The notes under the pieces are model-generated. The model searched no databases, was not told where the DNA came from, and was given only the letters and a program-made list of their open reading frames with translations. The translations under genes were made by a program, and so were the position numbers. This document shows, one piece after another, positions 8,015 to 54,382 of a DNA stretch of 64,000 bases. Position 1 is the first letter of the stretch, and each line of letters starts with the position of its first letter. Source of the stretch: Nemertoderma westbladi (taxonomy: Eukaryota; Animalia; Xenacoelomorpha); contig JAUCBJ010007480.1 in NCBI GenBank assembly GCA_032718475.1, positions 32,214 through 96,213 on the forward strand. Direction: 5' to 3'.

Positions 8015-9205
8015 TGTTCGCGCTTTCAGACCTTTGGCAGTTTAACCCGCCAAATTAAGATGTCTTCTAGATATTAAATCGCTTTTTAGCCTATGACAAG
8101 TATTTGATTCACTACACTAGTCGAAACCAATCCGTGCGCGACCATTCACCCGCTGGATATTCCCGGGAGATTGGGTTCGACGGTTTAATTTTATTGCTAT
8201 GTAAGCCTAATGTATTATTCGACTGACAGTATTATATAATCTCTGACAATATTATTCACCTTCGGGAATATTAACAGTTCCTTTAGGACGTGGCGCTTTA
8301 TCTATATAAACAGAGTTATGACTTAAACTACTCACAACGATATGGCTTAATTATAATTCACATATATGGCGCATTCTTTAGGAATGCTTCTTTAACAGAC
8401 TCACTCATACGCAATGCTGCACAATACTGCACACTAATCTGCCAATCTTCACTGATTTTAGTCACATATAAAAGGAACACAGACTGACTCATGTAGGGTC
8501 TATCAAATAACATTAGATTCACTTCAAACCACTTTAACATAAGTCACAATCGTTATTGGTAACCTTTCTCTCTTACCTTCGGTATATCAAGAATATTGGG
8601 TATCGGGGTTATTTCTCGTTATTCCAATATAATAATTCATCAACAAATATAATGAATAACCGACAACAAATAGCAGTATACAGTATGATTGAGCAGGTAA
8701 TTTTGCAGTTTCGCAGTTATTAAAAGCCGTGTGGCAGCAGTTGCTGTCGCCAGTTAAAGGATATATGTCCTTATAATTAAACCTACTAGTGTTGAGCTAA
8801 AAAGCAGAAAGCACAAAACACTAAAAAGCCGTTCTTTCGTGGCTTTGAAAAACTCGTGACTACTGCTCTATACGAGGATACCAACTCCCTTATTCCACGA
8901 AGCTCCCGTTCAACACAGAGAAAGAGCAGTGAGATAGGAAATTTTCAGTTCAGTAGCCTGTGATAGGTCAAAATCAAGGCTAACTCAAATTCTATTGGGA
9001 GATACAAAAACAAGGCTATGACGCAACCTCCCTAGGCTTGTTGGCCGATTAAACAGAGCCCAGATGCCTGCGTACAGCAAATCAGCCAATAAGCTGGTAA
9101 CTTGCACTATTTTTAGCTGTAGATCACTTTGAGAGTATTCTTAGCGACTGGGGGGGAACTGGCCAACAAGGCAAACGAATCAGTTATCCCACAAAAGCTT
9201 TTACA
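8015..9205 (-). repeat. 3' LTR of element 1
   Basis: tgttcgcgc...gcttttaca; nearly identical to 20140-21332. Confidence 0.95.
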
Positions 9206-9216
9206 CCGCTCCCAGA
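9206..9216 (-). promoter_or_regulatory. Polypurine tract (plus-strand primer) of element 1
   Basis: Sense strand reads TCTGGGAGCGG directly before the LTR TG; identical at 44936-44946 in element 2. Confidence 0.6.
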
Positions 9217-9283
9217 AAATGGGATTTAAGTCTATAAAATATACAAAATCACAGTTTCTAAAATATAAAAATACTCTAAACAG

Positions 9284-11000
9284 TTAGTCTTTCTTGCGCG
9301 GACGGCGTTTACGCAGTTTCTTGAGGCTAGCAAGAGTCCTTTTCTCTTTGGGGGGAGCCACTTTACTAGGAGGGCCATAACTCCTGGGTGAAGGGTGCAA
9401 TATGATTGCATCAGAAGGTGTAGATTTATGGTCGAGGTATCTGCCGTTTCAATATGCTTCTCCTCGAGCTGATTTTCCTCCGCTCGTAGCTGGATACGTT
9501 CATCCAAAAACTCTCGCAGAGAATAGGATCGTCCAAGTTCGATAACTTCTTAGAGATTCTGGATTTCCCAATCGAATTGAGATAAGGCCAATTCGTTTAT
9601 CGATTGGACTTACTGTTATAACTTACGTTTATCTGAACAAACGCAGGTTTCTTTTTTGATCTTTATAGAATAGCGTTTAACTCGTTTCGTACAACGCTCT
9701 CCTTCACCTTGATGAGGGGTTGTATCGCGTTAAACGGGGACGACCATACGGTTGGATAGTGATATTAGGTGTCCGCGTCACAATCCGGCTAGGTAAGATG
9801 GGCGGCTAGCTAGAAATCACTGTCGGAGTGTTACCGATTAATTGTTAGGGTAGCACTAGATCTTTGAACAGTGAATACAGTCCGCGAGGATCCGCGACAC
9901 CACCAGGATCGCAGGTCTGAGGTCCAACTAAGGAATGAGGAGGTTTGACCGAGTATTCCGGGACTCTGATCGTAGGTTTACTCCAGGATCGTTCGAGCCG
10001 AGTGAGCATAGGTGATACGTCAACAAGTTTCGGTTTACGTGGATGTTTATGTCTTTCCGTTTATTAGTTGGGTCTAGGGCATTTATCGTAATAATACCAA
10101 AGACGCACGTCTGGTAGGGTAAACGCGGGTGATATTTATTTGTTGTTACAATGCTTCTATCAAGAATTCCAAATATACGTTGGAGTTACCGCGTCCATTT
10201 GTTTCTTTAGTGTCTTTTCTTTCGAGTCGATTTCGAATAGAATTTTCGCATTCGAATTTCAGTTTATGGTTCCGACTCCGCTGGGCAGGATATATAGTCG
10301 ACATAGTCCGTATTGTGTAAATCGATAGGATGACCAGTAGTTAAGAAGCCCATATACGTACCATTACGCTGCGTATATCGAGCAGCGAATTTTCTATAGT
10401 CCAACTCGCGCGAGCTGCTCTTGGGACATTGGCGGTTCGATATAACGACCATCGTCCTCCGCAGCAGTTGGACTAACGTCGCCGCGTATTAAGCTATCAA
10501 CAAACGCTTGTAAAAGTAGAGTATATCGCTCCCCGATACCAAGACCATCTTCTATCAACTCCGTCATATCTGCTATATATGAGTTTATCCATATTATAAT
10601 GAGTCTACATTTAGGCGAGCGGGCGTCGCTGCCTACCCCAATCAACCCCCGGACAGTACGAGATCCTCAGCGCCGATGTGTCGTCGCCGCTGTACTTTCG
10701 CCAACGACGTAGCCGCACAACGACAACGACAACCGGCACAAGTCACTCAACTGTCCGTCCCAAAGGCTTAGATGTACTTCAGGTTTTCCTTGGAGAGTTA
10801 GGTTACTTTTACGATTGCGACTAGCTACTGTAAACACACCTTAGCAGTAACATTCACCTATAAACTCACAAATACCACGCACACAACTTGTCACAAATTA
10901 CACACATTCGGGCCATTTGTCCGTTAGTCAATGCCTTCCAGAATGTCACTGTATTATTATGTATCCTTGGATACTAGCAGTGCGCTATTTATTCCCTATG
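9284..11000 (-). pseudogene. Decayed second ORF in the env position of element 1
   Basis: Fragments YPRIHNNTVTFWKALTNG, LWDGQLSDLCRL, MTELIEDGLG...AFVDSLIRG, IKVKESVVRNELNAI and TLASLKKLRKRRPRKKD* align with element 2, with many third-position differences; stops and frameshifts present. Confidence 0.55.
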
Positions 11001-12218
11001 CTATTCAATGGGACAAGCTTTCTATTGTTCTTTTAACTCAATTCTAATTCTAGCGTGGTTGTTGCTATGGTGACATTATGCAAAGCTAGCGGTAGAATTA
11101 GTGTAATTCCAATGCATACAGATCTGGGATGTTATTTAATAGTATTCTTTAATAGTCAATGTTCTGTTTTATACATGACTTTATGAATTTTATCGGCTAT
11201 TAACTATGTTTGGGAGACTTTCGTACACGCATACGCATAATAATATAAATCTCCGCTCCCTTGATCTATTAATTAATGGAATTTTGGGAATGTTATAAAT
11301 CGCGTAAAATGGCAATTTATTAAATTCATTAAAAGACATGAATTTAAATTTATTCCCTGAAATTTTATTATTTGATAATTAAATGGGCATATTTTGATTC
11401 TAGAACATGTCTAGGGACACAAGATCCTTAATTCTAAGAAAATTGTCTCTTTAAGAATATCGGTAAATGCTACGATATCTTAATTGACTAGAATTGTTGA
11501 AGGATCTGAATTTTACAGATTTTGACTTATTTGATTTGTAAATATTAACTAATTAATATTTGAGATGGGCACCGATTTATTCCAGAACTTGTCTGGGGAC
11601 GTTAACCACTGATTCTATAATTTGTCTTTCAAGTATATCGGTGGGTGCCACGATATCTTAATCGACTAGAATTACAGATGGTCAAAGGGTTTAACAGATT
11701 TATTTTGCGTTATACGCTACTGTTAAAGGGACATCACGCTACTATATGTATTATTTAATATACGGTATGAGAGCAATATCGCACGAAGCAATGTCAGTGT
11801 GAAGAGGCAAGTCGTTTCCAAGGTCTACCCAGAGCTTGGTTTAGCCGAGACACGAGGATCTGAACTTTGCATTCCTAATACTCTGCCTACCAATAATACT
11901 TAAATATAGTAGTGGCTTTATTGTACTTTAATAAGTACGGACATTTCATCTTACTGTAGTTACGTATTTATAATATAATACGGACAGTAAGGAAAGAGAA
12001 AAATAATTATTTCTTCGCCGTCTCAATAAATATAATATAAGTAATTACGTACGTAATAAACACAAATATATTGCACTATTCTACAAAATAATCGCTAAAT
12101 AATATTCTACTAAATTAAATAAAACGATTATAATAAAATTACATAGTAATACATACATAAATATAAAAATAATAATATAATATAAAATAATCGAGTCACA
12201 TGCCCACTCCGAACGATA

Positions 12219-12945
12219 TTAAGTTGGGGAGTCCCTAGATGTCGGTTGGATTAGGGAGGTGGTCGTGGGAAGAGAATCTTGCCTTCCACAGTTTCCGGAG
12301 AGTCCTCCATTCCCTTCCGATAAACACAAACGACCGACTGGGTGATTGAGTCGCTGCATCCTGAATACAATTCCAGGTTTCCTCTTCGTCCTGGAATAGT
12401 GACGATAGAAACATCGCTCAAAGTATATGACGGCGTCACAAAGCCGATTCCAGGAGCTATAGTGGTCCATCGCTCTCTGCAGGAGAGGTGAGAGTCCCTG
12501 CGAGACGTCTGATGTTCCAGAGCTCCAATCGCTCTCTCTGATCTTCATGAAGGATCCACTCGCGGTGGGGAGGTCCAGATCCACGGCGTCGTCCCTGGCA
12601 ACATGTAATACCGACAGATCTATCCCGGGTTCAAATAACTCCGATCCACCCGTCCGGGTTTTAGGTTTAACTTTCTCCGCTCCCTTGGCTGGTCTAATCT
12701 CAGTCGGAGTAGGATGGGGAGGCCATTCATCCTCCTTACTCAGGAAGTCGGGTTCACCTAACCGGTCTGTAGTATCTGTCAGTTCTTGAGGAGTTGCTCC
12801 TCTGGAAACGATGTCAGTTGTATTCATCGTTTTGGGGCAATATCTCCATTGATCTACGTTGGAGTTAAGATTGTCATTATCTGAGGAGTGTGGTGTTCCC
12901 TCAGTTGGGTCGTCTCCCTCACTAGTATCATCTTCCCATTCACTC
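12219..12945 (-). pseudogene. Remnant of the BEL/Pao pol RNase H end / linker
   Basis: QWRYCPKTMNTTDIVSRG...GEPDFLSKEDEWP and HYSSWNRL match the BEL QWRHV..NPAD.ASRG..GP.FL..EWP and YSSW.RL motifs. Confidence 0.7.
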
Positions 12946-14189
12946 CGCTTGCGTCCTTCTGGGCTCCTCTCCGATGACTCCGAGGCGCACCCATGAGGCG
13001 GACGCTGTCCCACCACCCTTGGGGCCAGTCCGACTGATGTTTTTATCAGACCGGGCCGGAGGGTAGCCCGATGCTTCCCGGGTTCACTTTTCAATCCCCC
13101 GATCACACCGGCACAACTCGTCGGTGTAGCCAGATGGTCGGCTACTGTCAACTTGCTGTGGCCTGACTGTACATTGAGCCAACTCAGAGAGTCAACCGGC
13201 GGGTGGACCAGTCGATAGCGATCGAGCATCAAGGTCGCCCTTGAGCCAAACCGACGGTCTTGTCCCAAGTGGGCTTGTGCTACCCAACATGGAATATTGA
13301 CCGTTTTCACCCGCCTCGCCGGCAGTATTGAGGGTTAACCACTCCGCAACAATACTGACTAGCTCGAAAGCTAGGAACAAGTAACCACTTACCAGTCACT
13401 GTACACGTGTACTCAACAGATGCTCACGAAATCGAGTACACAACGGTAAACACAAAATCGAACACATACCATGCACACACAGAGGACATAATCGGGGAAG
13501 ACAAAATCGGTGACAAAATCAGAGGGGACAAAATTGTATCGACTAATAAAAGAGTCGAGAGTACCTTATTTTGCCGTCAGGGCAAAATAACTTTGTGTGC
13601 ACAAAGTATGCTGGGGCGCAGTGAAGATATGGTCTTATTAATAACCAGCGGCGACTGGACCAACCGGCAAGGGTTCCCATACTCACTCGCAGTGGCCATA
13701 CATACACTCACGTATACCACGTACACACACAAACCACAGATTCCAGAGTATCATTCACTCGGACCACACTACAACACTAACCCCTCCTTGCAGCCGATAT
13801 TCCGGGTGCCACCTCCATTCCAATAGTAGTACCAACAGAATCATCAGAACCTGTCCATTCCGATGCAACACCTCCATTCCAATAGTGCTACCCTGGGAAA
13901 AAACACGTTTTGGCAACCGATCGGAGACAGTACAGAGTCTGGTCAACTCATACATACCAAACATAGACCTACCACATAAACCACATAAACCACAGATCAC
14001 ACTAAGCCACCACCCCTACTGTGTACAGGACTGGCAGTACGGCAACAGGCCGACTAGACGGTACCACGGCACCATGTTGATTCATGGTTCGCAAGACACG
14101 AGGGCCTTCAGTAACTCCCTTGCACTATAGCGTCGATTTAACGTGTCCCCAGAGCCTCACGAGTCCGCCGCCGCCTGTTCCAGGCACCC

Positions 14190-17100
14190 CTATAGAGACC
14201 TCACCTCCTTGGGTACCTGGCAGACGCGATCTTGAAGCAGTCTTTCCCTGAGCGTTCTACGGGAAGGTCCAGTAAGGTACCAACCTACTCTAGTTCTTAC
14301 CGCATAGGTCTGTAGTGGCTGCGGTTGAGCAGGCCGTTTCTCTAATGTCTCCAGCGCCTCATGCGCGTTTTGGCCGATGAGTATTTGCACTCCAGGATAA
14401 TCAGTCTGGAATCGAGGTATGTTAAGATGTTGGATGCTCTCATCCTCGTCCCAATTATAAAGGTCTGCTTGAGTAGTAGCGAAGTTCTTTATAGCCACCA
14501 TTTTCACTGACCTGATGCTATGTTCTCCTAGTTCGTCCTGGGGGGTGGACAACTCACCTATATAATAGTCGGCAGCTACAGTATAATTCCAAACCTGCAT
14601 GATCCCTGACATGTTTAGCTTGGTTCGGAACTTGGGTTGTCCAGCAAAGATGTCTTCGGCTAGTTCTTTATCGATGAATGTTCCTGTGCTGCCGGAGTCC
14701 AGGAGGGCGTTCACTATATAGCTCTTCTGAGGTCCGTGGACCCGTAACTGAACTACAGGAAATTCTCGGATTCCTATATTGGAAGTTGGCGCTTTCCAAG
14801 ATGGTTGTTGATCGGAAGTAGTTAAGGTAAGGTCGCTGTCTGTGTCTTTCTCATGTACGAGTGCTCTATACACTGCGGTGGTGTTTATTAGGTAACAGGA
14901 TTCGTTTTGGTCGGAGAACTCGTCCGTATAGAATCCTTCCATCTCAGATTGATCAGTGTCGTTCACATCACTGAATTGGACATGTAGTTCGGACTCACTT
15001 ACCTGACTCGGGCTGTTTCGTTCGAATTCCGTGTGCAACAAGATATGATGTTTTGCGCCGCACTTTGCACACCTTGCGTCGGAGTTACAGGTTCGCCGTT
15101 GGTGTCCTCGTCTGAGGCAATTATAACACAACCGCTTATTCCACATGACTTCACGTCTATCCTCGAGTGATTTCCTCAGGAATTTATCACACGCATTTAA
15201 ACGGTGGGGCCCGTCGCACAGCACACATTTCGGCTTGATGTTACTTACTTTAACCTGTGCTATGTGGTGCACACTTGTTCTTTCCTCGGGCTTTCTCACC
15301 TGAATTCTTTTAGGAGACGTAGGAAGGGTTTTTTGTACCGGTTCCCTTCTGTCATTGGGTCGAGACTCGGATTTACTTACCTGATCTTTAGGCAATTTAT
15401 TGACATAATAAGATCTGTCAGTGTCTTTCCCGCTGTCCTCTCCTTGAGAAGTTTGGCTTTCACCGTCGTAGGTATAACATACTGGTGTTACCCTTCTCCT
15501 AGAAACGGGTTTCTCACTTACGTTGTTTTCCAGTGTCTTCTCTCTGGACTGTCTTAGGAGCTGTAATTTCACTTCTCCATCTAAGAATGACATGAGATCA
15601 GCCATGGTAGGGTCTCGTTGTTGTTGTTCCATCATATATAACACTTTCTTGTCCCAGCGTGTACCTACTCCACCCTTGGGCAAAGTAGATGCTAAGGCTC
15701 CTACAACCATAGAATTCTGGTATTCATGAGACTTACCTAACCAATCTAGTTGTCTACAGATCTCCTGAATCTCATCGGAAAACTCTATAATCCCGCTGCT
15801 AAGAAACTTTCGGGGCGCCATTAATTTCGCATATAAATACCTAGCTATGTTAGTCCTATTACTATACCTGATGTTTAGTGTATCCCAAACTTGTCTTAAT
15901 CCATCTGGATGTCCAATAAATTTTAACGCCATTAACTTGGGAGGTCCTTCCAAACATTCGATGAGGAATCTAAGTTTCTCTCCGTTAGATAGTACAGAGT
16001 TCTGTATGTTATCTTTATAATATTCATTAAAAGGTAACCATTTCATCTCATCTCCATTGAACTTGACGATCTCTCCCACCTTTACCGCTTGCCGGGCTTC
16101 GGTTCTAGCCATTTGACGCGTAAAACTTTCTTGGGCCATCGTGTTATTTAATATCGAGTTATCGGTATATAAATTTCTCGGATTATGATCAGTTCTATGT
16201 GGAATATCATTATCAACAGGTCTATAATTACCCTTAATAGGGTTCACTATAGGAGTTTCTACTTCGCTAGCAGTATATATGCGTGTAGGCTCCACACCTT
16301 GCGCATGAGATACTTCAGACCTAACAGGTTGACACATTGTTACAGAGGGTGGTGGTATACCTCTTTGAGTATTTACTAATTTATCGCGTTCTAACGCGAT
16401 ACTTTGCTGCACTTCTTGCAACTCTAGTCTACTTTCCATTACTGTGCCCTTGAACTGCTGGACAGTCTCCTGCATCTGCCCGAGCAGGATATCCATCCCC
16501 CGCCGTCTCTCGTCTACCCAATCAACCGCCGAAACGGGATCCGCCAACGTCGTAGCGGGCAGACGAGGGACAACGGGCGACAAATTTGGAATATTTCGCT
16601 CGGGGTCCAGGACCTGAACTGTCTCCTGGGCAGTTCTACGGGGCACAGGTAGCTTAGTGCTATGCAGAGGGAATTTATAGGTAGCTTCAGGGAGCACAGG
16701 TGTGTCTATCACCGTAGGGGTGATTTCAAGAACAGGCCTAATTATTTCAGGCTCATCTACTATAGTAGGGAGTCTTTCTATTTCAATTATTTGGTCTGTG
16801 GGTTCTGTACTACCTAAGTTGGTGTTATTTAGTTGTCTTCTAACAGCTGGAGGCAAATCAGGCAATTTCTGACGGTGGGATGTTCTTCTACGTCTGCCTA
16901 GACGAGATCTATTTCCTTTGCCTTCAGTGTCTGTTGTATCTCCTTCATCAGAGGATGTAAATCCCTGTCTCTTGGAAGTAGTCCTACTTATCAGCTGCAT
17001 ATCACTAGCCGTTATCTGTTTATTTAAGTAATCGTGCTTCTCTTGAAGATTCTCCAACTCTAGTTGGACTTTTTCTTCAGATGCCCTCCGTTCCGCTTCG

Positions 17101-17927
17101 GCCACTGCCTCTGCGGCCTTTCTTTCAGCCTCGGCCACCTTTCTTTCAGCTTCGGCCGCTGCCGCTGCCTCTGCCGCTTTTGCCTTGGCCGCTGCCGCCT
17201 TTCTTTCTGCCTCTGCCACTGCAGCTGCAAAGGCCGCTGCTATTTTCTTTCTGTCTTCTATAAGTTTTTTCTTTACTTGCTCTTCTTGGACTCTAGTGAT
17301 GCGGAGTTGTTCATCAAATTTAGCCTGATTCGCAGCTAACATTTCCGCATCAATTGCGTCCAGCACAAGCTTGGTTCCTTCACTATTAGGGCTAAGCCCC
17401 TCCAGCCTTCTCCTCAACTCTTCATCTCCTACAAAGCGTTGATAGTCTGACAGATAGATGTCAATAGCATCCCTCTTAAGCGGTTTCTCTGCTGTCACTT
17501 CGCTTTCTTCTTGAGAAGAAGTGGCGTCGGTTGATTCTTCATAGGTTGGCCACTCATCATAAACCTTATCCGCCATCTTCGCTCCGCGTTTGGGCGTCAG
17601 CTCTACAGTATCCTCACTACTGGAGCTGCTGGGCCGCTGAGGAATAAGTTCTTGACTCGCGGGTTGTTGCTGTTCCGCTGCTTCTGGGTCCCGCTTGACC
17701 TGAGCTCGAGTGCCTATGATAGACCTACGATGTTGGACTAGCCTAGGGTCTGATACTACTACTTGAGGGATGATCTTTCGCACAGTAGGAGGGGACTTAG
17801 ACTTTGGTCTGGGATGTTCCATACTTTGATCTTGGTCACAGATCCTTTTAAGACGCTGTCTAAGTCGAATACTCATTCTAACACCCTCTAAGAGACTATC
17901 TGACAATGTTTGTTGTGAGTCAGACAT
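14190..17927 (-). CDS. BEL/Pao Gag-protease polyprotein (1245 aa)
   Basis: DUF1759-type KFNGDEMKWLPF...EKLRFL...LEG...W..L..RY; triple Zn knuckle CVLCDGPH / CYNCLRRGH / CAKCGAKHH; aspartic protease ALLDSGS...ILIG...RTRVGW; N-terminal Ala/Glu coiled coil. Confidence 0.93.
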   Translation of the reverse strand: MSDSQQTLSDSLLEGVRMSIRLRQRLKRICDQDQSMEHPRPKSKSPPTVRKIIPQVVVSDPRLVQHRRSIIGTRAQVKRDPEAAEQQQPASQELIPQRPSSSSSEDTVELTPKRGAKMADKVYDEWPTYEESTDATSSQEESEVTAEKPLKRDAIDIYLSDYQRFVGDEELRRRLEGLSPNSEGTKLVLDAIDAEMLAANQAKFDEQLRITRVQEEQVKKKLIEDRKKIAAAFAAAVAEAERKAAAAKAKAAEAAAAAEAERKVAEAERKAAEAVAEAERRASEEKVQLELENLQEKHDYLNKQITASDMQLISRTTSKRQGFTSSDEGDTTDTEGKGNRSRLGRRRRTSHRQKLPDLPPAVRRQLNNTNLGSTEPTDQIIEIERLPTIVDEPEIIRPVLEITPTVIDTPVLPEATYKFPLHSTKLPVPRRTAQETVQVLDPERNIPNLSPVVPRLPATTLADPVSAVDWVDERRRGMDILLGQMQETVQQFKGTVMESRLELQEVQQSIALERDKLVNTQRGIPPPSVTMCQPVRSEVSHAQGVEPTRIYTASEVETPIVNPIKGNYRPVDNDIPHRTDHNPRNLYTDNSILNNTMAQESFTRQMARTEARQAVKVGEIVKFNGDEMKWLPFNEYYKDNIQNSVLSNGEKLRFLIECLEGPPKLMALKFIGHPDGLRQVWDTLNIRYSNRTNIARYLYAKLMAPRKFLSSGIIEFSDEIQEICRQLDWLGKSHEYQNSMVVGALASTLPKGGVGTRWDKKVLYMMEQQQRDPTMADLMSFLDGEVKLQLLRQSREKTLENNVSEKPVSRRRVTPVCYTYDGESQTSQGEDSGKDTDRSYYVNKLPKDQVSKSESRPNDRREPVQKTLPTSPKRIQVRKPEERTSVHHIAQVKVSNIKPKCVLCDGPHRLNACDKFLRKSLEDRREVMWNKRLCYNCLRRGHQRRTCNSDARCAKCGAKHHILLHTEFERNSPSQVSESELHVQFSDVNDTDQSEMEGFYTDEFSDQNESCYLINTTAVYRALVHEKDTDSDLTLTTSDQQPSWKAPTSNIGIREFPVVQLRVHGPQKSYIVNALLDSGSTGTFIDKELAEDIFAGQPKFRTKLNMSGIMQVWNYTVAADYYIGELSTPQDELGEHSIRSVKMVAIKNFATTQADLYNWDEDESIQHLNIPRFQTDYPGVQILIGQNAHEALETLEKRPAQPQPLQTYAVRTRVGWYLTGPSRRTLRERLLQDRVCQVPKEVRSL

Positions 17928-19256
17928 GTTTGGTTGTACAGTTGAATGCCTACTGCTATATTACAGTCTAAGCAAGTCTAGTAATTCAGTATTAACTGCT
18001 AGCCTAGTAATTAATTACCGATACTGCTACCCAGTGTAGCGTGATATATATAATATTAGAATACCGGTATGCTTATGGTATATATAAGTATTATGACAGA
18101 CTAGGTTTTTCACAGAAACCGGTATATAATTTTAGCACAAATATATATAAATATATAATAGGCCTATCGTGGATACCGGTATGCAGTTTACACTTATAGT
18201 GTATATATATAAGTATAATTACAGACTAGAATTAATTACAGAATACCGGTATGATTTCAACCTAAAATTTATAGAAATAAAGATAATAGGCCTATCGTAA
18301 ATACCGGTATATCAATTATTTTAAAATAACTGAATTTCTGAACTTTAGGGTTACTTGGTTACTTTAACTTACTTTATTACCGTTATTTAAGCAGTAATCC
18401 AACTGATATTGAGACCTAATGGTTGTATGGTAGGCCTACTATTTATAAATCGTTAGATTTGATTTATAATATATATATACCCGTTTTAATGGGTTTTGTC
18501 TATGTTTGAAATAAATGTTATTATTTCTGGGGTAATCACTACACAAAGCGGTGCGCTTTCAGTGAAGTGTTACGTATAGGACACTAAAACAAATAATTCT
18601 AATTTACCTAAGTTACTTAATACTACAAATTACGTACAATTCGGGTTGAGATTACAATCTCTAAATAAACTCAAAAATTTACAAAAAACACAAAATACGA
18701 ATTTTTAGGGTAATTTTGCAAGAAGTCTACAAACCAGCCTAACAAAGGGTTAGAAAACTGGTTATTACAACGGACAGGGTACTACGGTATTTGAAATAAT
18801 AAGTAGTAGTAAATACACTGCGTTGTCTAGATAGGAAAATACCACCGCCTGACGACCTATAGCCGTATCGCTATAGGTTCTACGTTATGTATCACGGAGT
18901 GTTCCTACCTAGAAGTTAATAGAGCTAATCGAATGTGCCTATCAACCACTTTACAACACAAATATAATGCCTACAATAATTACTTCGGAAAGTACTGTAC
19001 ACTAAACCCTAAATTAGGTACGAGTACTTGTACAACAGATAATCAGTAGTTAAATATACTTGAACAGCTAAAAGAACCACGGCATCTGCTGGAGTGACCG
19101 ATGCACAAAATCACCAGTCTTTACCTACGCCGAGCAGCCCGTGTAGTACCGGGGTTAATTTAACTATAGCGGTATGTATAACGAACACAATTACTGTAGG
19201 AACAAACTTGGGGAATGAATGTTGCGGATAATCGCATAAACTCTGAATAATAAATA

Positions 19257-19815
19257 TTACGCTACGCGTACAAACTACTCAAACAAAATACAGACCGAAC
19301 ACTGACAGACTACCATCAAGCCTAAACAAACTACGGTATATGCAGACTCCGAAATGATTAGGGAGTATGCGCTCTAACCCAGTAGTGCGACTTATTCTTT
19401 AGTTGGGGGTTTACCTTACAGCGTTCGCTGCCCCTACTGCCTAACCGTACTTAATCGGACAGATGATCTACACACACGGCAATCCGTTCAGACCTAATAA
19501 CAGCCAGACAACTATCCAGCCTACAAATTATCTAAATAAAATTATACGCTACCCGTACAGACTTACACAAACAAAGTACAGACTAAACGATGGCAGACTA
19601 CTCTCAAGCCTAAATAAACTACAGGACATGCAGACTCCGAAATGATTAGGGAGTATGCGCTCTAACCCAGTAGTGCGACTTATTCTTTAGTTGGGGGTTT
19701 ACCTTACAGCGTTCGCTGCCCCTACTGCCTAATCGTACTTAATCGGACAGGTGATCTACACACACTGCAATTCGTTCAGACCTAACAGCAATCAGACAAC
19801 AGCTCAGCCTACAAA
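19257..19815 (-). repeat. Tandem ~288-bp duplication in the 5' leader of element 1
   Basis: gcagactccgaaatgattaggg... at 19342 and 19630; element 2 has an equivalent duplication with a ~282-bp period. Confidence 0.85.
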
Positions 19816-20127
19816 TCGTCTGTACAATCTGATCAGGCTTACACGCCTTCTGTTCAATACTGGCCTACAAATAAATAAAACTTGACAGAAATAAGTAAAA
19901 TCTCAATAAAAAATCAGGGCGGCCGTTCCCTGATTAAGTACTAAGACCTACCGGTATACAACTATCAAATCGAATAATACTGCTGTACCTGTACTGCTGT
20001 AGGTACCGGTCCGGGTGGTTAGGTAGTCAGGCCTACTGGTACCGGTTCTGGCAGTTGGGCCTACTGACCTACAGATGTACCGGTTGACCGGTACTTTCAA
20101 CTTTATTGCTTACTGCAATAAAGAAGT

Positions 20128-20139
20128 TATATCCTTTAA
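20128..20139 (-). promoter_or_regulatory. Non-tRNA primer-binding site (self-priming type), element 1
   Basis: Sense TTAAAGGATATA directly after the LTR CA, with no TGG. Perfectly complementary to the sense strand of LTR 20883-20894 (8754-8765 in the 3' LTR). Confidence 0.75.
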
Positions 20140-21332
20140 TGTTCGCGCTTTCAGACCTTTGGCAGTTTAACCCGCCAAATTAAGATGTCTTCTAGATATT
20201 AAATCGCTTTTTAGCCTATGACAAGTATTTGATTCACTACACTAGTCGAAACCAATCCGTGCGCGACCATTCACCCGCTGGATATTCCCGGGAGATTGGG
20301 TTCGACGGTTTAATTTTATTGCTATGTAAGCCTAATGTATTATTCGACTGACAGTATTATATAATCTCTGACAATATTATTCACCTTCGGGAATATTAAC
20401 AGTTCCTTTAGGACGTGGCGCTTTATCTATATAAACAGAGTTATGACTTAAACTACTCACAACGATATGGCTCAATTATAATTAACATATATGGCGCATT
20501 CTTTAGGAATGCTTCTTTAACAGACTCACTCATACGCAATGCTGCACAATACTGCACACTAATCTGCCAATCTTCACTGATTTTAGTCACATATAAAAGG
20601 AACACAGACTGACTCATGTAGGGTCTACCAAATAACATTAGATTCACTTCAAACCACTTTAACATAAGTCACAATCGTTATTGGTAACCTTTCTCTCTTA
20701 CCTTCGGTATATCAAGAATATTGGGTATCGGGGTTATTTCTCGTTATTCCAATATAATAATTCATCAACCAATATAATGAATAACCGACAACAAATAGCA
20801 GTATACAGTATCGATTGAGCAGGTAATTTTTGCAGTTTCAGCAGTTATTAAAAGCCGTGTGGCAGCAGTTGCTGTCGCCAGGTTAAAGGATATATGTCCT
20901 TGTAATTAAACCTACTAGTGTTGAGCTAAAAAGCAGAAAGCACAAAACACTAAAAGCCGTTCTTTCGTGGCTTTGAAAAACTCGTGACTACTGCTCTATA
21001 CGAGGATACCAACTCCCTTATTCCACGAAGCTCCCGTTCAACACAGAGAAAGAGCAGTGAGATAGGAAATTTTCAGTTCAGTAGCCTGTGATAGGTCAAA
21101 ATCAAGGCTAACTCAAATTCTATTGGGAGATACAAAACAATGCTATGACGCAACCTCCCTAGGCTTGTTGGCCGATTAAACAGAGCCCAGATGCCTGCGT
21201 ACAGCAAATCAGCCAATAAGCTGGTAACTTGCACTATTTTTAGCTGTAGATCACTTTGAGAGTATTCTTAGCGACTGGGGGGGAACTGGCCAACAAGGCA
21301 AACGAATCAGTTATCCCACAAAAGCTTTTACA
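20140..21332 (-). repeat. 5' LTR of element 1
   Basis: Matches 8015-9205; followed by TSD CCTAC. Confidence 0.95.
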
Positions 21333-21359
21333 CCTACAGTATAGGAAACTCCAGTACTA

Positions 21360-27654: not shown

Positions 27655-29400
27655 AAACCGAAAAATTGTGTTTTTAAAATATTATGACATATTCCGGCAT
27701 TTTTCATTTTTTGAAAAAATACCGGGACTTTTCAAAATTATGAGCCTGAAAAAATTAAACCACCATGTCCAATTGTTATTCAAAAGTGAGAGCAAGGTTT
27801 AGAAAAACCCACAAGTAGTATTTTTTAAATATTCTGTCCTGGTTTTCGAAATATCGGCATTTTCATTTTTTCAAATAATGCTGGAGGCGCTTTTCAAAAT
27901 TATGTGCCGGAAAAAAATTAAATCACCATGTCCAATTGTTATTCAAGAGTGAAAGTTCATCGTAGTGACTAACTAAATACAATCAATGCCACCGCACCCC
28001 CACAACCCCCTCACGAAAACCTCCGATAACTGCCTCTGTTCGCGCTTTTAGACCTTTAGCAGTTTAACCTGCCAATTTTAGTTGTCCTCTTGTTTATAAA
28101 TCGACTTTAGCCTATATCAATTACCTAGTGTACTGAAGTTACATCAGCCGAAGCCAGTCCGTGCGCGGCGTATGACCCACGGTGTGGGAGACTGGATTCG
28201 GATTCCTTGAGAGTTATTGCAGTGTAGACCTACTGTATTATTCGATTGATCGCTACTATATAATCTCTGACAAATATATTTACTTTCGGGGAAATATTAA
28301 CAGTTCCTTTAGGACGTGGCGCTTTAAGTATAAAAACAGAGTTATGACTTATACTAATCACAACTAGATGGCCACAGAGTTTCGTAAATAGCGCATTCTT
28401 TAGGAGATGCTTTATTAACCTTCACACTACTTCACACGACTTCACACTACTTTCACTAGTTCGCACTAATCTGCCGACCGTCACAGAATTTGATCATATA
28501 TAAGGAGGATTGCAATTGACACACGTAGGGATTATGAAATAGCATTTAATTCACACAAAACCACTATAATTTAAGTCGCAGTTGCTACCGGTAAACTCTA
28601 TTCCTCTTACCTCAGTAATCAATAAGATTGAGGGGTTTATGGTTATTTATCGGTATTTTCCAAATATAACATCAATATCCATTAATATAACAACAATTAA
28701 TACTATAAAACAGAAGTAAAATAATGCGGTGAACAGTCAGTATGTGTTAATGAATTGAGTATGAAAGTCAGGCAGTCAGGTGTGAGCCGGTGAGCCGGAT
28801 AATAGATTTACGTTCTTATATTCAAAGCCATCTGATGTTCCTAGGCTAAAGTCTGAAACTTCCACACAGAAGCACAGAAAATTCCGAGCTGGCTCTGATG
28901 CTCAGAAAATGTAAACAAAGACCGTAATGCATTGCGCGAGTTTCCATAGGTTTCTGTTAGACATAAAGTGAAAATTGCTCTGATTGGCTGAATAAGGCAG
29001 AACAAAGATAACCTCCACGTCCACAAAGAATCAGCTGACAGATTTCGTCATTTTGGTTCTAATTCCTTCCCGTCGCGTAGTTGGATAAATTTAGGGCTAT
29101 TTTAGAGTATTCTGCGCATTGCGTAAAAATGACTTGTTATGTACGCAAAAGCTTTTACAGCCTCCGCCACACTAGGCCTACTGTACTTCCCCAGATAGAT
29201 GTTATATCGCTCCCTCCCCTCCCCCACCCCCCATCCCTACGGTTTTTCTTGACCTGACAAATAAGTTGACATATAAATTAATCATTAAATTTTTCAGGCT
29301 CAAAATTTTGAAAAGTGCCGTTATTTTTTCAAAAAATGAAAAATGCCGATATCTCGTAAACCAAACGACAGAATATTTTAAAAATACTATTTTTGGGTTT
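27655..29400. repeat. Foldback-like repeat interrupted by the solo LTR
   Basis: Two direct ~150-bp units (27655-27790, 27805-27950) and one inverted unit (~29260-29400). Confidence 0.5.
28037..29159 (-). mobile_element. Solo LTR, third subfamily of the same BEL/Pao-derived group
   Basis: tgttcgcgc...gcttttaca with 5-bp TSD GCCTC on both sides; shares conserved blocks such as cagttcctttaggacgtggcgc with the other LTRs. Confidence 0.92.
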
Positions 29401-43668: not shown

Positions 43669-44935
43669 TGTACGCGCTTTTATAGACCTTCAGCAGTTTA
43701 ACCTGCCGAAATTTATATGTCTTTATTGATAAACTGCCTTTTATAAGATGACAAGATTTAATACAAAACAAACCAAAAACATTAGCCGAAGCCAGTCCAT
43801 GCGCGTCCAAATGACCCGTTTATAACACCGGGAGACTGGATTCGTGGGCTTAAATTTATTTGCGGTCAAGCCTACTGTATTATTCGATTGATTACTAATA
43901 TATAATCTCTGACAAATATTATTCACTTTCGGGAAATATTAGCAGTTCCTTTTAGGACGTGGCGCTCTACCTATGTAAACAGAGTTCTGACTGATACTAC
44001 ACACAACGATATGGCTTAAATTTCAAGCATAGGGCGCATTCTTTAGGAATGCTTTATTATCAGATCCAATCACTTTACAATCACGCACGCTACCGGTAAC
44101 GCACAACACTGCTCACTGATATGCCGACAGTTACTGACTTTGATCAGGTATAAAGAGATATGCACTGGACTCAGGTAGTGTCTGTCAAACAACATTAGAT
44201 TCACTACAAACACAATAATAAAGTCGCAATTGTTGTACATAACCTTTCTCTCTAACCTGTAGTGTATCAAAGATATTGGGAAAATGTGGGTTGATTATTG
44301 ATATTCTTCAAATAAAAACATCCAATTATACTGATACAAATTACAAACAGTAAAAGCAGTATGACGGTAGGTTAAGATATAATTAGATTGCATTGAATTA
44401 AGATCGATATAAAGTGATATGAATCGAGTTGATTTGATAATAGCTATGCTTTCTATAATTTAGCCTACTAATGTTCTTATAAAAAGGCAGAAACATTGCG
44501 TCATTCCAGCCGATCTTCAGGCAGTATGGAACGACATAAACACTGAGTTTGGGAGCTGCTGTAGGTATCTCTTCAAGGAAAACGCAAATCGCCCTGATTG
44601 GTTGTTAGACCAAAACAAAGGAACCAGGAGTCCAATGAGAGCTCCCTCCACGTCATCATCCAGCTGGGAGATGTCGTAATCAGAATCCTTCCCTTGACAT
44701 AGTGACAGTGAAATGCCGCATTGCGGGGTTTGTACCCTGCTACGTCCGCATAAAGCACACATTCAGAAGAATCTATTTTATGTCCGTTAAAAACACTTAT
44801 ACAGCACCCCGAGGGCTAGGGGATCCAATTATATCTGTAAACGCTTTTACAGCAGGTTTCAGAGTATTTTAGCGTATGGGGGGAAAACTGGATCGCGGGG
44901 CGAAGGACCAGTTGCATCCCACAGAAGCTTTTACA
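43669..44935 (-). repeat. 3' LTR of element 2
   Basis: tgtacgcgc...gcttttaca; matches 54394-55666. Confidence 0.95.
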
Positions 44936-45013
44936 CCGCTCCCAGAAAATGGGATTGAAGTCTATAAAATATACGAGATCACAGTTTCTAATATACATAA
45001 ATACTCTAAACCG

Positions 45014-46800
45014 TTAGTCTTTCTTGCGCGGACGGCGTTTACGCAGTTTTTTAAAGCTGGCCAGAGTCCTTTTCTCTTTGGGGCGAACCACTTTACAAGG
45101 AGGGCTATAACTCCTGGGTGAAAGGTGCAATATAATTGCATCAGAGGGTGCAGGCTTATAGTCGGGGTATCCGCCGTTTCGATATGCTTCTCCTCGAGCT
45201 GATTTTCCTCTGCTCGTCGGTGGATACATTCGTCCAAAAATCTCGCGGAGAATAGAGTCGTCCAAGTTCGATATCTTCTTAGAGATTAGTTTAAGTTATC
45301 TGAACAAACGCAGGTTTCTTTCCTGATCTTTGTGGAATAGCGTCTAACTCGTTTCGGACAACGCTCTCCTCTACCTTGATGACGGGTGGTAGCGGGTTAA
45401 ACGGGAACGATCCCGATTACACGGTTGAATGGCAACAACGGGTGTCCGTGCCTCAATCCGGCCAGGTAAGATAGGCGGATATTTAGGGAGCCATTAACCT
45501 GAGTGCCACCAACCAACGGCTCGGGCAACACTGGATCTCGGAACGGTAAGCACAGTTCATGAGGATCCGCGATACTATTAGGATCAAGAGTCCGAGGTCT
45601 AACTAAGGAAGGAGGAGGTCTGACCGAGCATTCAGGAACTCAGATCATAGGTCTACTCAAGGATCGCCCGAGCCGAGAAAGCGTGGGTGACACATCGAAC
45701 AAGTTTCTCTCGAAACTCCCGCAAACACAGCGAGCAAACCGTGTTTAAAGCTTCGTCTCCGTTGACGTTTATGTCTTTCCGTTTGTTGGTTGGTCTTAGG
45801 CATTCATCGTAATAATACCAAGACACACGTCTTGTAGGGGAAACGCGAGTGATATTTATTTGGTGTTACAATGCTTCTCTCAAGAATTCTAAATATACGT
45901 TGGAGTTACCGCGTTTATCCGCTTCTTGAACGTCTTTTCTTTCGCGTAGACTTCGCATAGAATTTTCGCATTCGAATTTAAGTTCATTGTTACGACTCCG
46001 CTGGGTAGGATATTTAAATAATACCATTTCCCTTTTGTGTTGACATAGTCCGTATCGTGTAAGTCGATAGAATAGCCGGTAGTTAAGAAGTCCATATACA
46101 TACCATTAATATGCGTATAGCGAGCGGTGAACTTGCTACAGTCCAACCCACGCGCAAGTTGCTCCTGGGACATAGGTGGTTCGATATAACTACCATCGTC
46201 CTCGGTAGTAGTTGGATCAGCTTCACCGCGTATCAAGCTATCCACAAACGCTTGTAAAGGTAGAGTATATCCCTCTCTAATACCAAGATCATCTTCTATC
46301 AACTCCGTCATATCTGTTATATGAGTTTACCAATATTAGAAGGAGTTTGGCTTTAGGCGAGCAGGCGTCGCTGCCTACCCCTCTCTGCCCCCGGACAGTG
46401 GGATCCTCAGCGCCGATGCACCGTTGTCGCGTGTTTACGCCAACGTTGTGGCAACAGCACGACAACGATAACCGGCACAAGTCACTCCACTGTCCGTCCC
46501 AAAGTCTTGAAATCACTTGAGGTTCTTGCTATGGGAGAGTTGGGCTACTTTACAATTGCGACTAGCTACGGTAAACACACTTTAGCAGTAACATTCACCT
46601 ACAAACGCACAAATTCCACACAACAGCTACCAACTACAATCATACAGGCCACTTGTCCGTTAGTCAGTGCTTTCCAAAATGTCACGTTGTTATTGTGTAT
46701 CCTTGGATACCAACAGTGTGCTATGTAATCACTATGCTAGGCAATGGGCAAGCTTTCTATTGTTCTGTTAACTCGTTTCTAATTCTAGCGTGGGTGTTGC
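45014..46800 (-). pseudogene. Decayed second ORF in the env position of element 2
   Basis: ORF pieces 46289..46516, 45889..46311 and 45014..45265 are colinear with the element 1 fragments. Confidence 0.55.
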
Positions 46801-47930
46801 TATGGTGACATTATGTAAAGCTAGCGGTAGAATTAGGGTAATTCTCATGCATACAGATCTGGGATGTTGTTTGATAGTAAGTCTTTAATTTGTCAATATC
46901 CTCTTTATACATGATTTTAGGAATTTTATCGGCTATTGACTATATGTTGGAGATTCTCGCACTCTAGCACACTCAATAGGGTGAATCTCCGCTCCCGTGA
47001 TCTATTAATTAGTGGAATTTTGGGAATATTAGAAATTGTGCAAAATGACAATTTATTAAATTCATAAAAATATGAATTTTAAACTTATTCCCTTGAATTT
47101 AATTATTTGATGGTAAAATTGACACAATTTTGATTCCAGAACATATCTGGGGACATAAGATCCTTAATTCTATAAAATGGTCTTTTAAGAATACCGGTAA
47201 GTGCTACGATATCTTAATTGACTAGAAATTTTAAAGGATCTGAATTTGACAGATTTAATAAATATTAAATTAATATTTAAGATGGGCACCGATTTATTCC
47301 AGAACTTGTCTGGGGACGTTAACCACTGATTCTAGAATTTGTCTTTCAAGTATATCGGTGGGTGCCACGATATCTTAATCGACTAGAATTACAGATGGTC
47401 AAAAAGGTTTAACAGATTTATTTTGCGTTATACGCTACTGTTAAAGGGACATCACGCTACTATATGTATTATTTGTTATAAGGTAGAAGAGCAATATCGC
47501 ACAAGGCAATGTCAGTGTGAAGAGGCAAGTCGTTTCCAAGGTCTACCCAGAGCTTGGTTTAGCCGAGACACGAGGATCTGAACTTTGCATTCCTAATACT
47601 CTGCCTACCAATAATACTGAATATATAGTAGTGGCTTTATTGTACTTTAATAAGTACGGACATTTCATCTTACTGTAGTCTCGCATTTATAATATAATAC
47701 GGACAGTAAGGAAAGAGAAAATAATTATTTCTCGCCGTCGCACTAAGTATATTATGTAATTACGTAATAAACACTAATATATTGCACTAATCTACTAAAT
47801 AATCTAAAATAACACTCTACTAAATAAAATTAAATAAAACGATTATAATAAAATACATAGTAATACATACATAAATATAAAATAAAAACAAATATAAAAT
47901 AATATAGTCACACACCCACTCCATATGTTA

Positions 47931-50900
47931 TTACGTGATGGAGTCCCTAGATATTTGTCGAATTAGGGAAGTGGTCGTAGGAAGAGTATCTTGCCTTCCA
48001 TGGTTTCCGGACAGTTTTCGGTCTCTTCCCGGTAAACCTAAACGACCAGCTGGGCGATTAGGCCGTCGTGATATTTCCTCCGCTCCCTTGGCCTGTCTAA
48101 TCTCCGCCGCGGCAAGACGAGGAGGCCATTCTTCTTCTTCTTTACTTAGGGAGTCGGGTCCACCCAACCAGCCGGGAGTATCTATCCGTTCTTGAGGAGT
48201 TACTCCTCTGGAAGCGATGTCGGCTAGATTAATCGTCTCGGGTCGATGTCTCCATTGATCTACATTGGAGTTGATATCGTCGCTATCTGAGGAGTATGTT
48301 GTTCCCTCAGTGGCTTCGTCCACCTCACTGCTCTCCTCTTCCCAAGCTTTTACTTGAAGTATCCGGTCTTGTGGCAGTCTTTCTTCAAGGGTTCTGCGGG
48401 AAGGGCCAGTGAAGTACCAACCTACTCGAGTTCTTACCGCATAAGGTTGTAATGGCTGCGGTTGAGCAGGCCGTTTCTCTAACGTCTCGAGCGCCTCATG
48501 CGCGTTTTGGCCGATAAGGATTTGTACTCCAGGATAATCAGTTTGGAATCGAGGTATTCCCAAATGTTGGATGTTCTCGTCCTCGTCCCAGTCATAAGGT
48601 TCTACTTGAGTAGTAGCGAAGTTCTTTATTGCCACCATTTTTACTGACTCTATACTTTGTTCCCCTAATTTATCCTGTGGAGTGGACAATGCGCCGATAT
48701 AATAATCTGCCATTAAGGTAGATTTCCAAACCTGCATAATTCCGGACATATTTAACTTAGTTCGGAATTTGGGTTGTCCAGCAAAAATATCCTCGGCTAA
48801 CTCCTTGTCGATGAATGTTCCGGTGCTACCTGAGTCAAGGAGGGCGTTCACTATGTAACTTTTGTTGGGACCGTGAACTCTTACCTGGACTACCGGAAAT
48901 TCTCGTATTCCTATGTTGGATGTTGGAGTTTTCCGAGATGGTTGCTTGTCCAAGGAGGTTGATGGAAACTCCGTGTCGTTATCCTTTTCGTACGTAAGTG
49001 CTCGATACACTGCGGTGTTTATTAGATAACAGGATTCGTTGGCATCAGAGAATTCGTCAGTATAGAATCCTTCCCACTCAGAACTTTGGTCAGTGTCGTT
49101 CACATCACTGAATTGGACATGTGATTTGGGCTCACTTACCTGACTCGGGTGGTTTCGTTCGAATTCTGTGTGCAATAAGCTATGATGTTTCGCGCCGCAC
49201 TTAGCACACCTTGCGTCAGAGTAACAGGTTCGCCGCTGGTGTCCGCGTCTGAGACAGTTATAACACAACCGCTTATCCCACAGGACTCCACGTCTATCTG
49301 CCAGGGATTTCTTTTGGAATTCCGCACACGCACTCAAACGGTGGGGCCCGTCGCACAGCGCACATTTTGGTTTGATGTTACTCACTTTAACTTGGGCAAT
49401 GCTGTGCACTTTCGCTCGTTCTTCGGGCTTGCTTACCTGAATTCCTTTGGGAGATTGAGGAGGGGTTTTGTTAAACTTATCTCTCCTATCATTGGTTCGA
49501 GGTTGGTATTTACTTACGTCTCTCGGGCTTTTGTTAACATAATAAGAGTGGTCTGTGTCTTTTCCGCTGTCTTCTTCTTGAGAAACTTGGCTCTCGCCTT
49601 CGTCAGTATAACATACTGGGGTTACTCTCCTTCTAGAAACTGGTTTCTCACTTACCTTGGTTTCCGATGTTTTTTCTCGAGATTGCTTGATTAGCTGTAG
49701 TTTAACCTCGCAGTCTAGGAATGACATGAGATCCGACATGAGAGGACTCCTTTGTTGTTGTTCCATCATATACAACACCCTCTTGTCCCAACGTGTACAT
49801 ACTCCACCCTTTGGCAAAGTAGAGACTATAGCTCCGATAACCATGGAGCTCTGATATTCATGGGACTTACCTAACCAATCCAATTGTCGGCAGATTTCTT
49901 GAATCTCATCGGAAAACTCTATAATCTCGTTACTAAGGAACTTTCGAGGAGCTACCAGTTTTGCATACAAATACTTAGCGATATTATCTTTATTACCATA
50001 CCTGGTGTTTAATGTGTCCCAGACTTGTCTTAATCCATTTGGATGTCCAATAAACTTCAACGCCATTAACTTGGGAGGTCCTTCCAAACATTTGATGAGG
50101 AATCTCAGTTTCTCTCCGCTAGATAGTACAGAGTTCTGTATGCTATCTTCATAATATTCTTTAAAAGGTAACCATTTCATCTCATCACCGTTGAATTTGA
50201 CAATTTCTCCCACTTTGACCGCTTGGCGGGCTTCTGTTCTAGCCATCTGACGCGTAAAGCTTTCTTGGGCCATCGTGTTATTTAATATCGAATTATCGGT
50301 ATATAAATTTTGCGGATTATTATCAGGTCTATAGGGAATATCATTACTCACAGGTTTGTAATCTCCTTTAATAGGGTTTACTATAGGAGTTTCTACATCG
50401 CTAGCAGTATATATGCGTATAGGCGACACACCTTGCGCATGATACACTTCAGACCTAGCAGGTTGACACAGGGTTACAGGGGGTGTTTCTACTTTACTAG
50501 CAGTATATATGCGTGTAGGCGACACACCTCGCGCATGATACACTTCAGACCTAGCAGGTTGACACAGGGTTACAGGGGGTGTTGGTATTCCCCTTTGTAT
50601 ATTGACTAATTTGTCGCGCTCTAATGCGATATTTTGCTGCACTTCTTGCAGCTCTATCCTACTATCCCTTACGGTTCCCTTGAGTTGGTAGACAGTCCCT
50701 TCTAAGTCCCGGATCTGTTGCGAGGAACAGTCCCGCTGTTCCCGCATTTGACCGAGCAAGAGACTCATCTCCCGCCGTCCCTTCTCCACCCACTCGACCG
50801 CCGAAGCGGGAGTCGCCAACGTTGTAGCGGGCCGTATCGGGGCGACGGGAGACAGATCTTGTATGTCTCTCTCGGTCTCCAGAACCGGGGCTTGGGCTGC

Positions 50901-53530: not shown

Positions 53531-54078
53531 ATTACGCTACCCGTACAGAATACTCAAATAAAATACAAACCGGATGCTGACAAACTACCATTAAGCCTAA
53601 ATAAACCACAGGATGTGCAGATTCCGAAACTTGTTAGTGAGTATGCGTGCTAATAAGGTAGCGCGGCTTATTCTTTATGGGGGTTGACCTTACAACTTAC
53701 GAGTTGCCCCAACTTACTAACTGGCACCTATCAGACTCTCTACACACGCGGCAATCTCTTCAGACCCAACAACAGCTAGGCAACAATCCAGCCTACAAAA
53801 TATCTAAATAATACTATTACGGTATCTGAACGGACTATACAGACAGTACAGTATAAACGCTGACGGACTACTATCAAGCCTAAATAACCACAGTATATGC
53901 AGATTCCGAAACTTGTTAGTGAGTATGCGTGCTAATAAGGTAGCGCGGCTTATTCTTTATGGGGGTTGACCTTACAACTTACGAGTTGCCCCAACTTACT
54001 AACTGGCACCTATCAGACTCTCTACACACGCTGTAATCTTCAAGCCTAACAACAGTCAGACAACAGTCCAGCCTACAA
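53531..54078 (-). repeat. Tandem ~282-bp duplication in the 5' leader of element 2
   Basis: gcagattccgaaacttgttagtgag... at 53617 and 53899. Confidence 0.85.
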
Positions 54079-54382
54079 TGATCTGAACAATCTGAGCAGA
54101 CTTACACGTCTTCAGCTCAATATTAACTTACTAGGAAATAAAACTGACAGAAATAAACCTAAGTAAAATCCCAATAAAAACCAGGCGTCCCCGATTTAGT
54201 ATCAAGACCTACCGGTATACAATAATCAAAATCGAATAATACTAATGTACTTGCACAGCAGTACCGGTTATGACAGTTGGGCCTACGGACCTACGGTAGT
54301 AGTACCGGTTATGACAGTTGGGCCTACTGACCTACTGGAGTGCCGGTATTTTCAATCTTATTGCTTACCGCAAATAAGATCG

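Follow-up and report, generated by a model that had tools for sequence, protein, structure and literature searches.

What primes reverse transcription in an LTR element that carries no TGG-type tRNA site next to its 5′ LTR? The question is raised by the 64-kb window analysed here (the whole stretch of DNA, 64,000 nt), which holds two full elements (E1 and E2) and, from the same family, a solo LTR, all on the minus strand (Table 1). The original prediction was that E1 and E2 derive from BEL/Pao and prime from their own RNA, as Tf1 does. According to ICTV, Belpaoviridae have an 18-nt primer-binding site (PBS) for tRNA-Arg or tRNA-Gly (PMC8742986). Passages of PMC7175516 describe Tf1 as having no tRNA site; ~11 nt of its own LTR RNA pair instead with a site adjoining the terminal CA of the LTR.

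Table 1. Coordinates of the elements, the pairing sequences and the predicted features of their LTRs and leaders (positions in the window)
Feature	Position	Strand	Remarks
E1, non-autonomous BEL/Pao LTR element	8015..21332	-	5-bp target-site duplication 8010-8014 / 21333-21337
E1 5′ LTR	20140..21332	-	1193 nt, TG...CA; 98.9% identity with 3′ LTR
E1 3′ LTR	8015..9205	-	1191 nt, TG...CA; second segment copy at 8754-8765
E1 primer-binding position (PBS)	20128..20139	-	12 nt, adjoins 5′ LTR, without TGG
E1 LTR segment complementary to PBS, candidate self-primer	20883..20894	-	CA directly upstream, A = 20895
E1 open frame	14190..17960	-	1256 aa stop to stop: DUF1759 Gag, CCHC fingers, aspartic protease
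E1 RNase H C-terminal region remnant	12372..12863	-	
E1 purine-rich tract (PPT position)	9206..9213	-	adjoins 3′ LTR
E2, sister subfamily of E1	43669..55666	-	without matching target-site duplication
E2 5′ LTR	54394..55666	-	1273 nt, TG...CA; 98.0% identity with 3′ LTR
E2 3′ LTR	43669..44935	-	1267 nt, TG...CA; segment copy at 44437-44447
E2 primer-binding position (PBS)	54383..54393	-	11 nt, without TGG
E2 LTR segment complementary to PBS	55168..55178	-	starts at A of a CA (55178)
E2 open frame	47931..52283	-	1450 aa: Gag, CCHC fingers, protease, then in-frame RNase H C-terminal remnant (48117-48269)
E2 purine-rich tract (PPT position)	44936..44943	-	same as that of E1
Solo LTR, third subfamily	28037..29159	-	5-bp target-site duplication; third sequence at segment position (28799-28810)
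E1 TATA-like motif	20898..20903	-	9 nt upstream of segment; TATAAG in 3′ LTR and most family contigs, 5′ LTR copy one base off
E2 TATA-like motif	55183-55188	-	upstream of segment
E1 candidate LTR intron	20368..20701	-	334 nt, downstream of segment; strong donor, weak acceptor
E2 candidate LTR intron	54634..54978	-	345 nt, same position as in E1
E1 predicted U5 structure	20144..20266	-	last 20 nt of LTR pair with 20254-20266, enclosing hairpin 20158-20179
E1 predicted leader hairpin	20101..20123	-	directly past PBS
E2 predicted leader hairpin	54355..54380	-	directly past PBS

The derivation of both elements from BEL/Pao held up. A domain search found DUF1759 in the frames of E1 and E2 (E = 2.7e-12 and 2.7e-13), all 45 longer homologues are BEL/Pao polyproteins carrying the Pao RNase H domain PF05380, and tblastn of six polyproteins against the elements matched the Gag, the protease and an RNase H tail. 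The same six polyproteins gave no reverse transcriptase (RT) or integrase match in E1 or E2. Gag and protease, TG...CA LTRs and the purine-rich tract place both elements within BEL/Pao, with a target duplication in E1 and the solo LTR only, and the purine-rich tract abutting the 3′ LTR of E1 fixes the orientation of the element. Judged by their coding content, E1 and E2 are non-autonomous deletion derivatives of BEL/Pao origin that lack the PR-RT-RH-IN order. They are young insertions of an abundant family, which was matched by 12,675 contigs in one sequencing run.

Several features of the two copies differ or are shared. The flanks of E2 (43664-43668 and 55667-55671) are not alike, the left one being 63-bp satellite and the right one unrelated, and E2 is possibly a recombinant of two insertions or the product of an assembly join. 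Between the protease and the RNase H remnant, E1 contains ~1.3 kb (12940-14227) absent from E2, in which two plus-strand frames gave no Pfam match. A 3′ region of ~3 kb (9206-12219 and 44936-47930, 82% identity between E1 and E2) holds short degenerate frames of no known family and is possibly a decayed extra gene, and the 5′ leaders have a 288-nt tandem duplication in common (19242-19816 and 53517-54078). Elsewhere in the window we found a 578-aa intron-free frame with no Pfam match (884-2620), an intron-free P450 (4171-5646) with CYP2-like matches at 26-34%, an arginine/serine-rich frame (37719-38189), a long TruD-like frame (58537-61473), a 357-nt palindromic element adjoining E1 (21588-21944) and about three repeats of a 1.76-kb unit (22166-26609).

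The PBS of E1 is the exact reverse complement of a segment of its own 5′ LTR and of the copy of that segment in the 3′ LTR, and the same holds for the PBS of E2; the 5′ LTR matches are those noted originally. Beyond these copies, neither PBS word nor its complement occurs anywhere in the 64-kb window. TGG is absent from the first 25 nt past either 5′ LTR, which bears out the claim that neither element has a TGG-type tRNA PBS, and the duplex stops at the LTR boundary as described, with no extension of the pairing into the LTR end. The lengths of 12 and 11 nt correspond to the perfect complement of ~11 nt between PBS and own LTR by which Tf1/sushi elements are recognised. The two segments occupy equivalent positions, ending in one alignment column (526) with their starts one column apart. 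Counted from the LTR end, 4 of the 11 positions are not the same in the two sites, and each of these four differences is compensated in the segment, in agreement with the covariation described originally. Drift of the PBS between subfamilies is not expected where a tRNA resets the site. ARAGORN and Rfam returned no match in the window, and the fetched loci of relatives contained no tRNA genes.

We compared the matches with shuffled and interior sequence. Base-shuffled LTRs reached a match at offset 0 in 3 of 20,000 trials for E1 and in 17 of 20,000 for E2. Among 10,904 interior start positions of E1 the PBS alone has a 12-nt complement in the LTR; an 11-nt complement exists at 10 of 9,428 interior positions of E2, one of them the PBS. 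In four runs no variant of at least 15% was listed in the PBS or segment of E2, compared with 26 rows elsewhere, the depth at the site being low and changes at contig ends being unlisted. For E1-type contigs, none of the best 40 of 164 variant rows falls in the PBS or segment, and in these rows position 20127, directly beyond the duplex, is changed in most contigs. One contig has a third, different TGG-less leader followed by the same hairpin arm.

The sequence directly past the segment is itself variable. The 5′ LTR of E2 has a 9-nt tandem duplication there (55158-55167) that is absent from its 3′ LTR, with the shorter form of the sequence present in three of four runs, the solo LTR has one of 8 nt (28783-28798), and E1-type contigs diverge at this place too. 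These duplications sit where strand transfer after a cut would land. In run X5, unlike three other runs, contig depth is 10-40x higher over a U3-side stretch of the LTR (55000-55296) than over the remainder of the LTR.

To place E1 and E2 among their relatives, we fetched 95 autonomous BEL/Pao loci, 15 of which had clear repeat-defined LTR ends, and tested 14, dropping L094 as a disrupted near-copy of L091 and keeping L088 despite its non-canonical LTR ends. The suggested check for the same complementarity in autonomous relatives came out in its favour: all ten non-TGG elements with mapped LTR ends match their own LTR and none of the four TGG-type elements does, their self-match never rising above 7 nt. 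In nine of the ten, three of which are one family, the match of 10-14 nt, located 0-3 nt from the LTR end, is to a splice junction of the LTR, and the introns spanned are of the form GT(A/G)AG...YAG, 71-697 nt long and inside the element's own LTR; the tenth has a contiguous 10-nt match. In a null of 234 mismatched pairs, the maximum was 8 nt with strict splice sites, and with any GT..AG 12 nt was reached once and 10 nt five times. That the match in these relatives is present only after splicing points to the RNA of the element as the partner of the PBS, and it is our strongest argument for such a partner. An unanchored scan of 59 more loci gave a weaker signal, with eight matches of at least 11 nt versus 6 of 177 null pairs, some of these probably same-family; of the eight, L027 and L034 (near-copies of L025 and L035) and the doubtful L067 were left out. 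Of ten further loci, six were blank, one gave an unconfirmed contiguous 10-mer, and three, probably from one related group, had 11-nt spliced matches. L088:7166-14071, whose LTRs are 99% identical and do not have TG...CA ends, shows the longest self-match across a splice junction (14 nt).

A splice-built primer was also considered for E1 and E2 and was rejected, the best junction matches being only 6 and 8 nt. Downstream of the segment their LTRs do have a strong splice donor, which the three LTR types share, and 334-345 nt beyond it a weak acceptor. The contigs of the four sequencing runs contained no intron-type joint, a result that bears on neither splicing nor start sites. If real, this candidate intron would cut the loop between PBS and segment, which measures 743-774 nt in E1 and E2 versus 44-216 nt in the relatives, to ~410-430 nt, and it would build no primer. 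The segment has weak similarity to the downstream exon junction in E2 only (p 0.01 and 0.03; 0.93 in E1 and 0.78 in the solo LTR).

In a tree of RT, RNase H and integrase (33 rows), the self-matching loci form one clade with support 0.994, which includes fish and oyster proteins and none of the TGG-type loci. Placed on 519 columns, E1 and E2 are sister to this clade on a long branch with support 0.43. Among the best full-length Gag-protease matches, 22 of 37, including the seven best, lie inside the clade, the node of which drops to support 0.2 once these 37 proteins are added. The original inference of an independent or acquired mechanism in a BEL/Pao lineage needs a correction: the trait appears to be inherited from a deep BEL/Pao clade and not to be new to this family, with an intron inside the primer in most sampled members and a contiguous primer in the family of E1 and E2.

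No close autonomous partner of E1 and E2 was found among 1.84 billion representatives, the viral contigs contained no relatives, and the LTR-end pattern had no match in metagenome contigs; three bacterial matches to this pattern were taken as chance. The window itself has a 538-aa non-LTR RT frame (41760-43376, RVT_1, E 6e-29), which lies in an array of 63/66-bp satellite (39861-43667) and is not the partner. Two full BEL/Pao elements with tRNA-type sites, L082 and L092, are found in a Wolbachia chromosome record (NZ_OU909470.1), and many of the BEL/Pao loci L070-L103 are in bacterial MAGs, by host contamination or real insertion.

We then asked where the 5′ end of the primer lies. Across 17 elements the duplex is 10 nt long in two, 11 nt in nine, 12 nt in three, 13 nt in one and 14 nt in two; five of the 17 had been selected at a length of at least 11 nt, and among the 12 unselected ones 11 nt occurs in five. 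A CA with its A 10-13 nt before the 3′ end of the primer is present in 10 of 13 elements taken one per family, where 2.2 are expected. The distance range for this count was chosen post hoc, and it still ranked first when all 16 dinucleotides were counted over 91 such ranges, TT following with 8 as the next count without overlap. The CA edge also occurs in all three later-found loci; the solo LTR has TA instead. In nine of 13 families the edge reads CA-N-A/T, which is initiator-like. The 5′ edge of the primer is thus fixed, and it marks a start site or else a second cut.

Folding predictions for E1 and E2 favour the duplex only for RNA starts no more than ~15 nt from the segment: predicted segment:PBS pairing is 0.8-0.94 with a start at most 6 nt away and falls to ~0 from 60 nt upstream. 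In nine relatives this trend was the same in three, opposite in one and unclear in five. A U5 stem with a small hairpin inside it is predicted in all three LTR types, formed by the last 20 nt of the LTR and a stretch ~110 nt further upstream (z = -1.9, -3.3 and -0.7), and two-sided change is seen in 5 of its 32 pairs. The segment had been placed near a transition from conserved to divergent LTR sequence, with CCAAT upstream. LTR identity is ~40-50% around and upstream of the segment and 60-95% from 100-200 columns downstream, so the rise is there, but it is gradual and has no sharp border at the segment; the sense CCAAT was recovered 154 nt (E2) and 232 nt (E1) upstream.

Altogether, we put the probability that self-priming of some geometry replaces the tRNA in E1 and E2 at roughly 0.8. 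Transcription would likely start at the CA bordering the segment (20895 and 55178), making the segment the 5′ end of the RNA. The segment would then fold onto the PBS, aided by the predicted U5 stem and leader hairpin on either side. Since E1 and E2 encode no RT and only part of an RNase H, a partner element would have to provide the enzyme: its RNase H would cut past the duplex, and DNA synthesis by its RT would proceed from the new 3′ end into the terminal CA of the LTR. In every cycle the PBS would be rewritten from the primer during plus-strand synthesis, which would account for the joint changes of site and segment. For the exact geometry of Tf1, with the 5′ end of the RNA as primer, the balance tips slightly in favour. 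The mode at 11 nt, the CA edge and the folding of E1 and E2 count for it; the TATA-like motif at -10 and the lack of one at -30, the mixed folding of relatives, the long loop and the first exons of only 3-9 nt that a 5′-end primer entails in the spliced relatives count against it.

It is conceivable, and in our view unlikely, that the segment is an internal self-primer, with transcription starting ~75-105 nt upstream and RNase H cutting the segment on both sides, as it does with the purine primer of the plus strand; the 5′ cut would then fall at the CA. Such an arrangement would spare the relatives their minute first exons, and TATA/initiator-like motifs are present 92-105 nt upstream in four of nine spliced relatives, with TATAGA at -106 in E1 and the above CCAAT in E2. 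It sits poorly with the loss of predicted pairing in E1 and E2 given at least 60 nt of upstream sequence and with the initiator-like character of the edge. Moreover, we found no significant extension of the duplex upstream (p 0.57 for E1, 0.69 for E2 and 0.16 for the relatives combined, the ban on intramolecular pairs being imperfect).

The pairing could instead be real but structural or regulatory, serving site masking, packaging or dimerisation, and the primer be an RNA of the host, for instance a fragment of a tRNA. Parts of PMC6317226 report half-tRNA priming in some Ty1/copia lineages, and the duplexes of E1 and E2 are weak (-11.6 and -10.6 kcal/mol). We consider this improbable, since the site varies among the subfamilies and all relatives yet always fits the element's own RNA, over a near-fixed 11 nt and at most 3 nt from the LTR end, and TGG-type relatives have no such match.

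The TATA-like motif argues for a different placement of the segment. TATAAG or TATAGA lies 9-10 nt upstream in the E1 3′ LTR, E2 and the solo LTR, kept across three LTR types that are only ~50% identical there, with a CA ~28-31 nt past the motif in each; it would put the start ~8 nt past the segment, at about 20873 and 55160, and does not fit a start at the segment itself. The segment would then belong to U3, and of its two copies only the one in the 3′ LTR would be transcribed, priming from the opposite end of the same RNA or from another RNA molecule. In that case the cut would be expected to take away the repeat that strand transfer requires, except where a second RNA serves, the CA at the 5′ edge of the duplex is left unexplained, and the motif is absent from the relatives, all of which makes a U3 placement decidedly improbable. 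No element has a TATA ~30 nt before the CA.

It is very improbable that the segment ends at a poly(A) cleavage site and that the 3′ end of the RNA is the primer: weak signal-like hexamers, called against a list of variants, do lie 17-18 nt before the segment end in all three LTR types, but the canonical AATAAA is 562-582 nt downstream of the segment, near the LTR end, in E1 and E2, and eight of nine relatives have AATAAA/ATTAAA past the primer and not before it. A chance match in AT-rich sequence, to which the ten interior complements of E2 lend some colour, is largely refuted by the shuffles and the interior-position scan, and leaves the match at offset 0, in the same column, with different letters in two subfamilies and again in relatives, to coincidence.

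Self-priming from the element's own RNA, if true, would have several consequences. A BEL/Pao RNase H would be able to cut an RNA:RNA duplex, failed PBS calls in many marine BEL/Pao elements would be explained, and a simple rule would be at hand for locating the LTR ends and start sites of such elements, which would also be beyond the reach of silencing by tRNA fragments. The exact 5′-end predictions named above come from two subfamilies whose letters differ at one and the same place. It is tempting to speculate, at somewhat less than even odds, that a deep BEL/Pao lineage of marine animals and fish swapped tRNA priming for an 11-nt self-primer at the capped 5′ end, that in most members the spliceosome builds this primer from a first exon of 3-9 nt, so that splicing licenses reverse transcription, and that the family of E1 and E2 is the intron-free form.

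Our search of the main text of openly accessible papers returned no published account of self-priming or of a splice-built primer in BEL/Pao; Repbase, GyDB and subscription papers may contain remarks on the PBS of Sinbad/Suzu elements. The Cer7 element of C. elegans reportedly encodes its own tRNA-like primer. By word search, priming is undiscussed in the accessible text of five BEL/Pao surveys (PMC3118150, PMC554778, PMC6238403, PMC8556966, PMC8220671), and the accessible parts of four further papers (PMC3601003, PMC5443660, PMC5445492, PMC3286476) do not tie self-priming to BEL/Pao.

Compared with Belpaoviridae (Semotivirus), E1 and E2 share the DUF1759 Gag, CCHC fingers, protease, Pao-type RNase H remnant, 1.2-kb TG...CA LTRs, purine-rich tract and, in E1, the 5-bp target duplication. 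They differ in having no PBS for tRNA-Arg or tRNA-Gly (PMC8742986) and in the deletion of Pol; four relatives do have a TGG site. With Tf1 and Tf2 of Schizosaccharomyces pombe and the Tf1/sushi chromoviruses of Ty3/gypsy (Tj1, Tosmo, Tcn1), they have in common the lack of a tRNA site and a complement of ~11 nt to their own LTR RNA beside the terminal CA of the LTR (PMC7175516). Parts of PMC5341516 describe a dependence on the start site in Tf2, and parts of a preprint (bioRxiv 10.1101/2022.12.06.519325) a three-duplex 'pretzel' around the PBS of Tf1. The predicted U5 duplex beside the PBS of E1 and E2 resembles one arm of this structure, and the duplex on the leader side is replaced by the predicted local hairpin. 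In contrast to Tf1/sushi elements, E1 and E2 are BEL/Pao and not Ty3/gypsy, all their homologues being BEL/Pao, and are therefore not members of that group; these copies are without RT, RNase H core, integrase and chromodomain, their loop is long, and in their BEL/Pao relatives the primer spans an intron. The feature is real, and on every sequence-level test bar the start site and part of the 'pretzel' it behaves like Tf1.

In the TAR lineage of plant Ty1/copia (Houba, Osr-1), outside Ty3/gypsy, self-priming was predicted from complementarity between PBS and LTR, and it was predicted for Tcn1 of plants as well (parts of PMC6317226). The TAR elements belong to Ty1/copia and E1 and E2 to BEL/Pao. 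As the trait has already been proposed in this second superfamily, BEL/Pao would, if our reading is true, be the third LTR superfamily with self-priming, the first being represented by Tf1/sushi and the second by the proposed TAR copia of plants, and E1 and E2 likely represent a known mechanism at work in a superfamily described as tRNA-primed.
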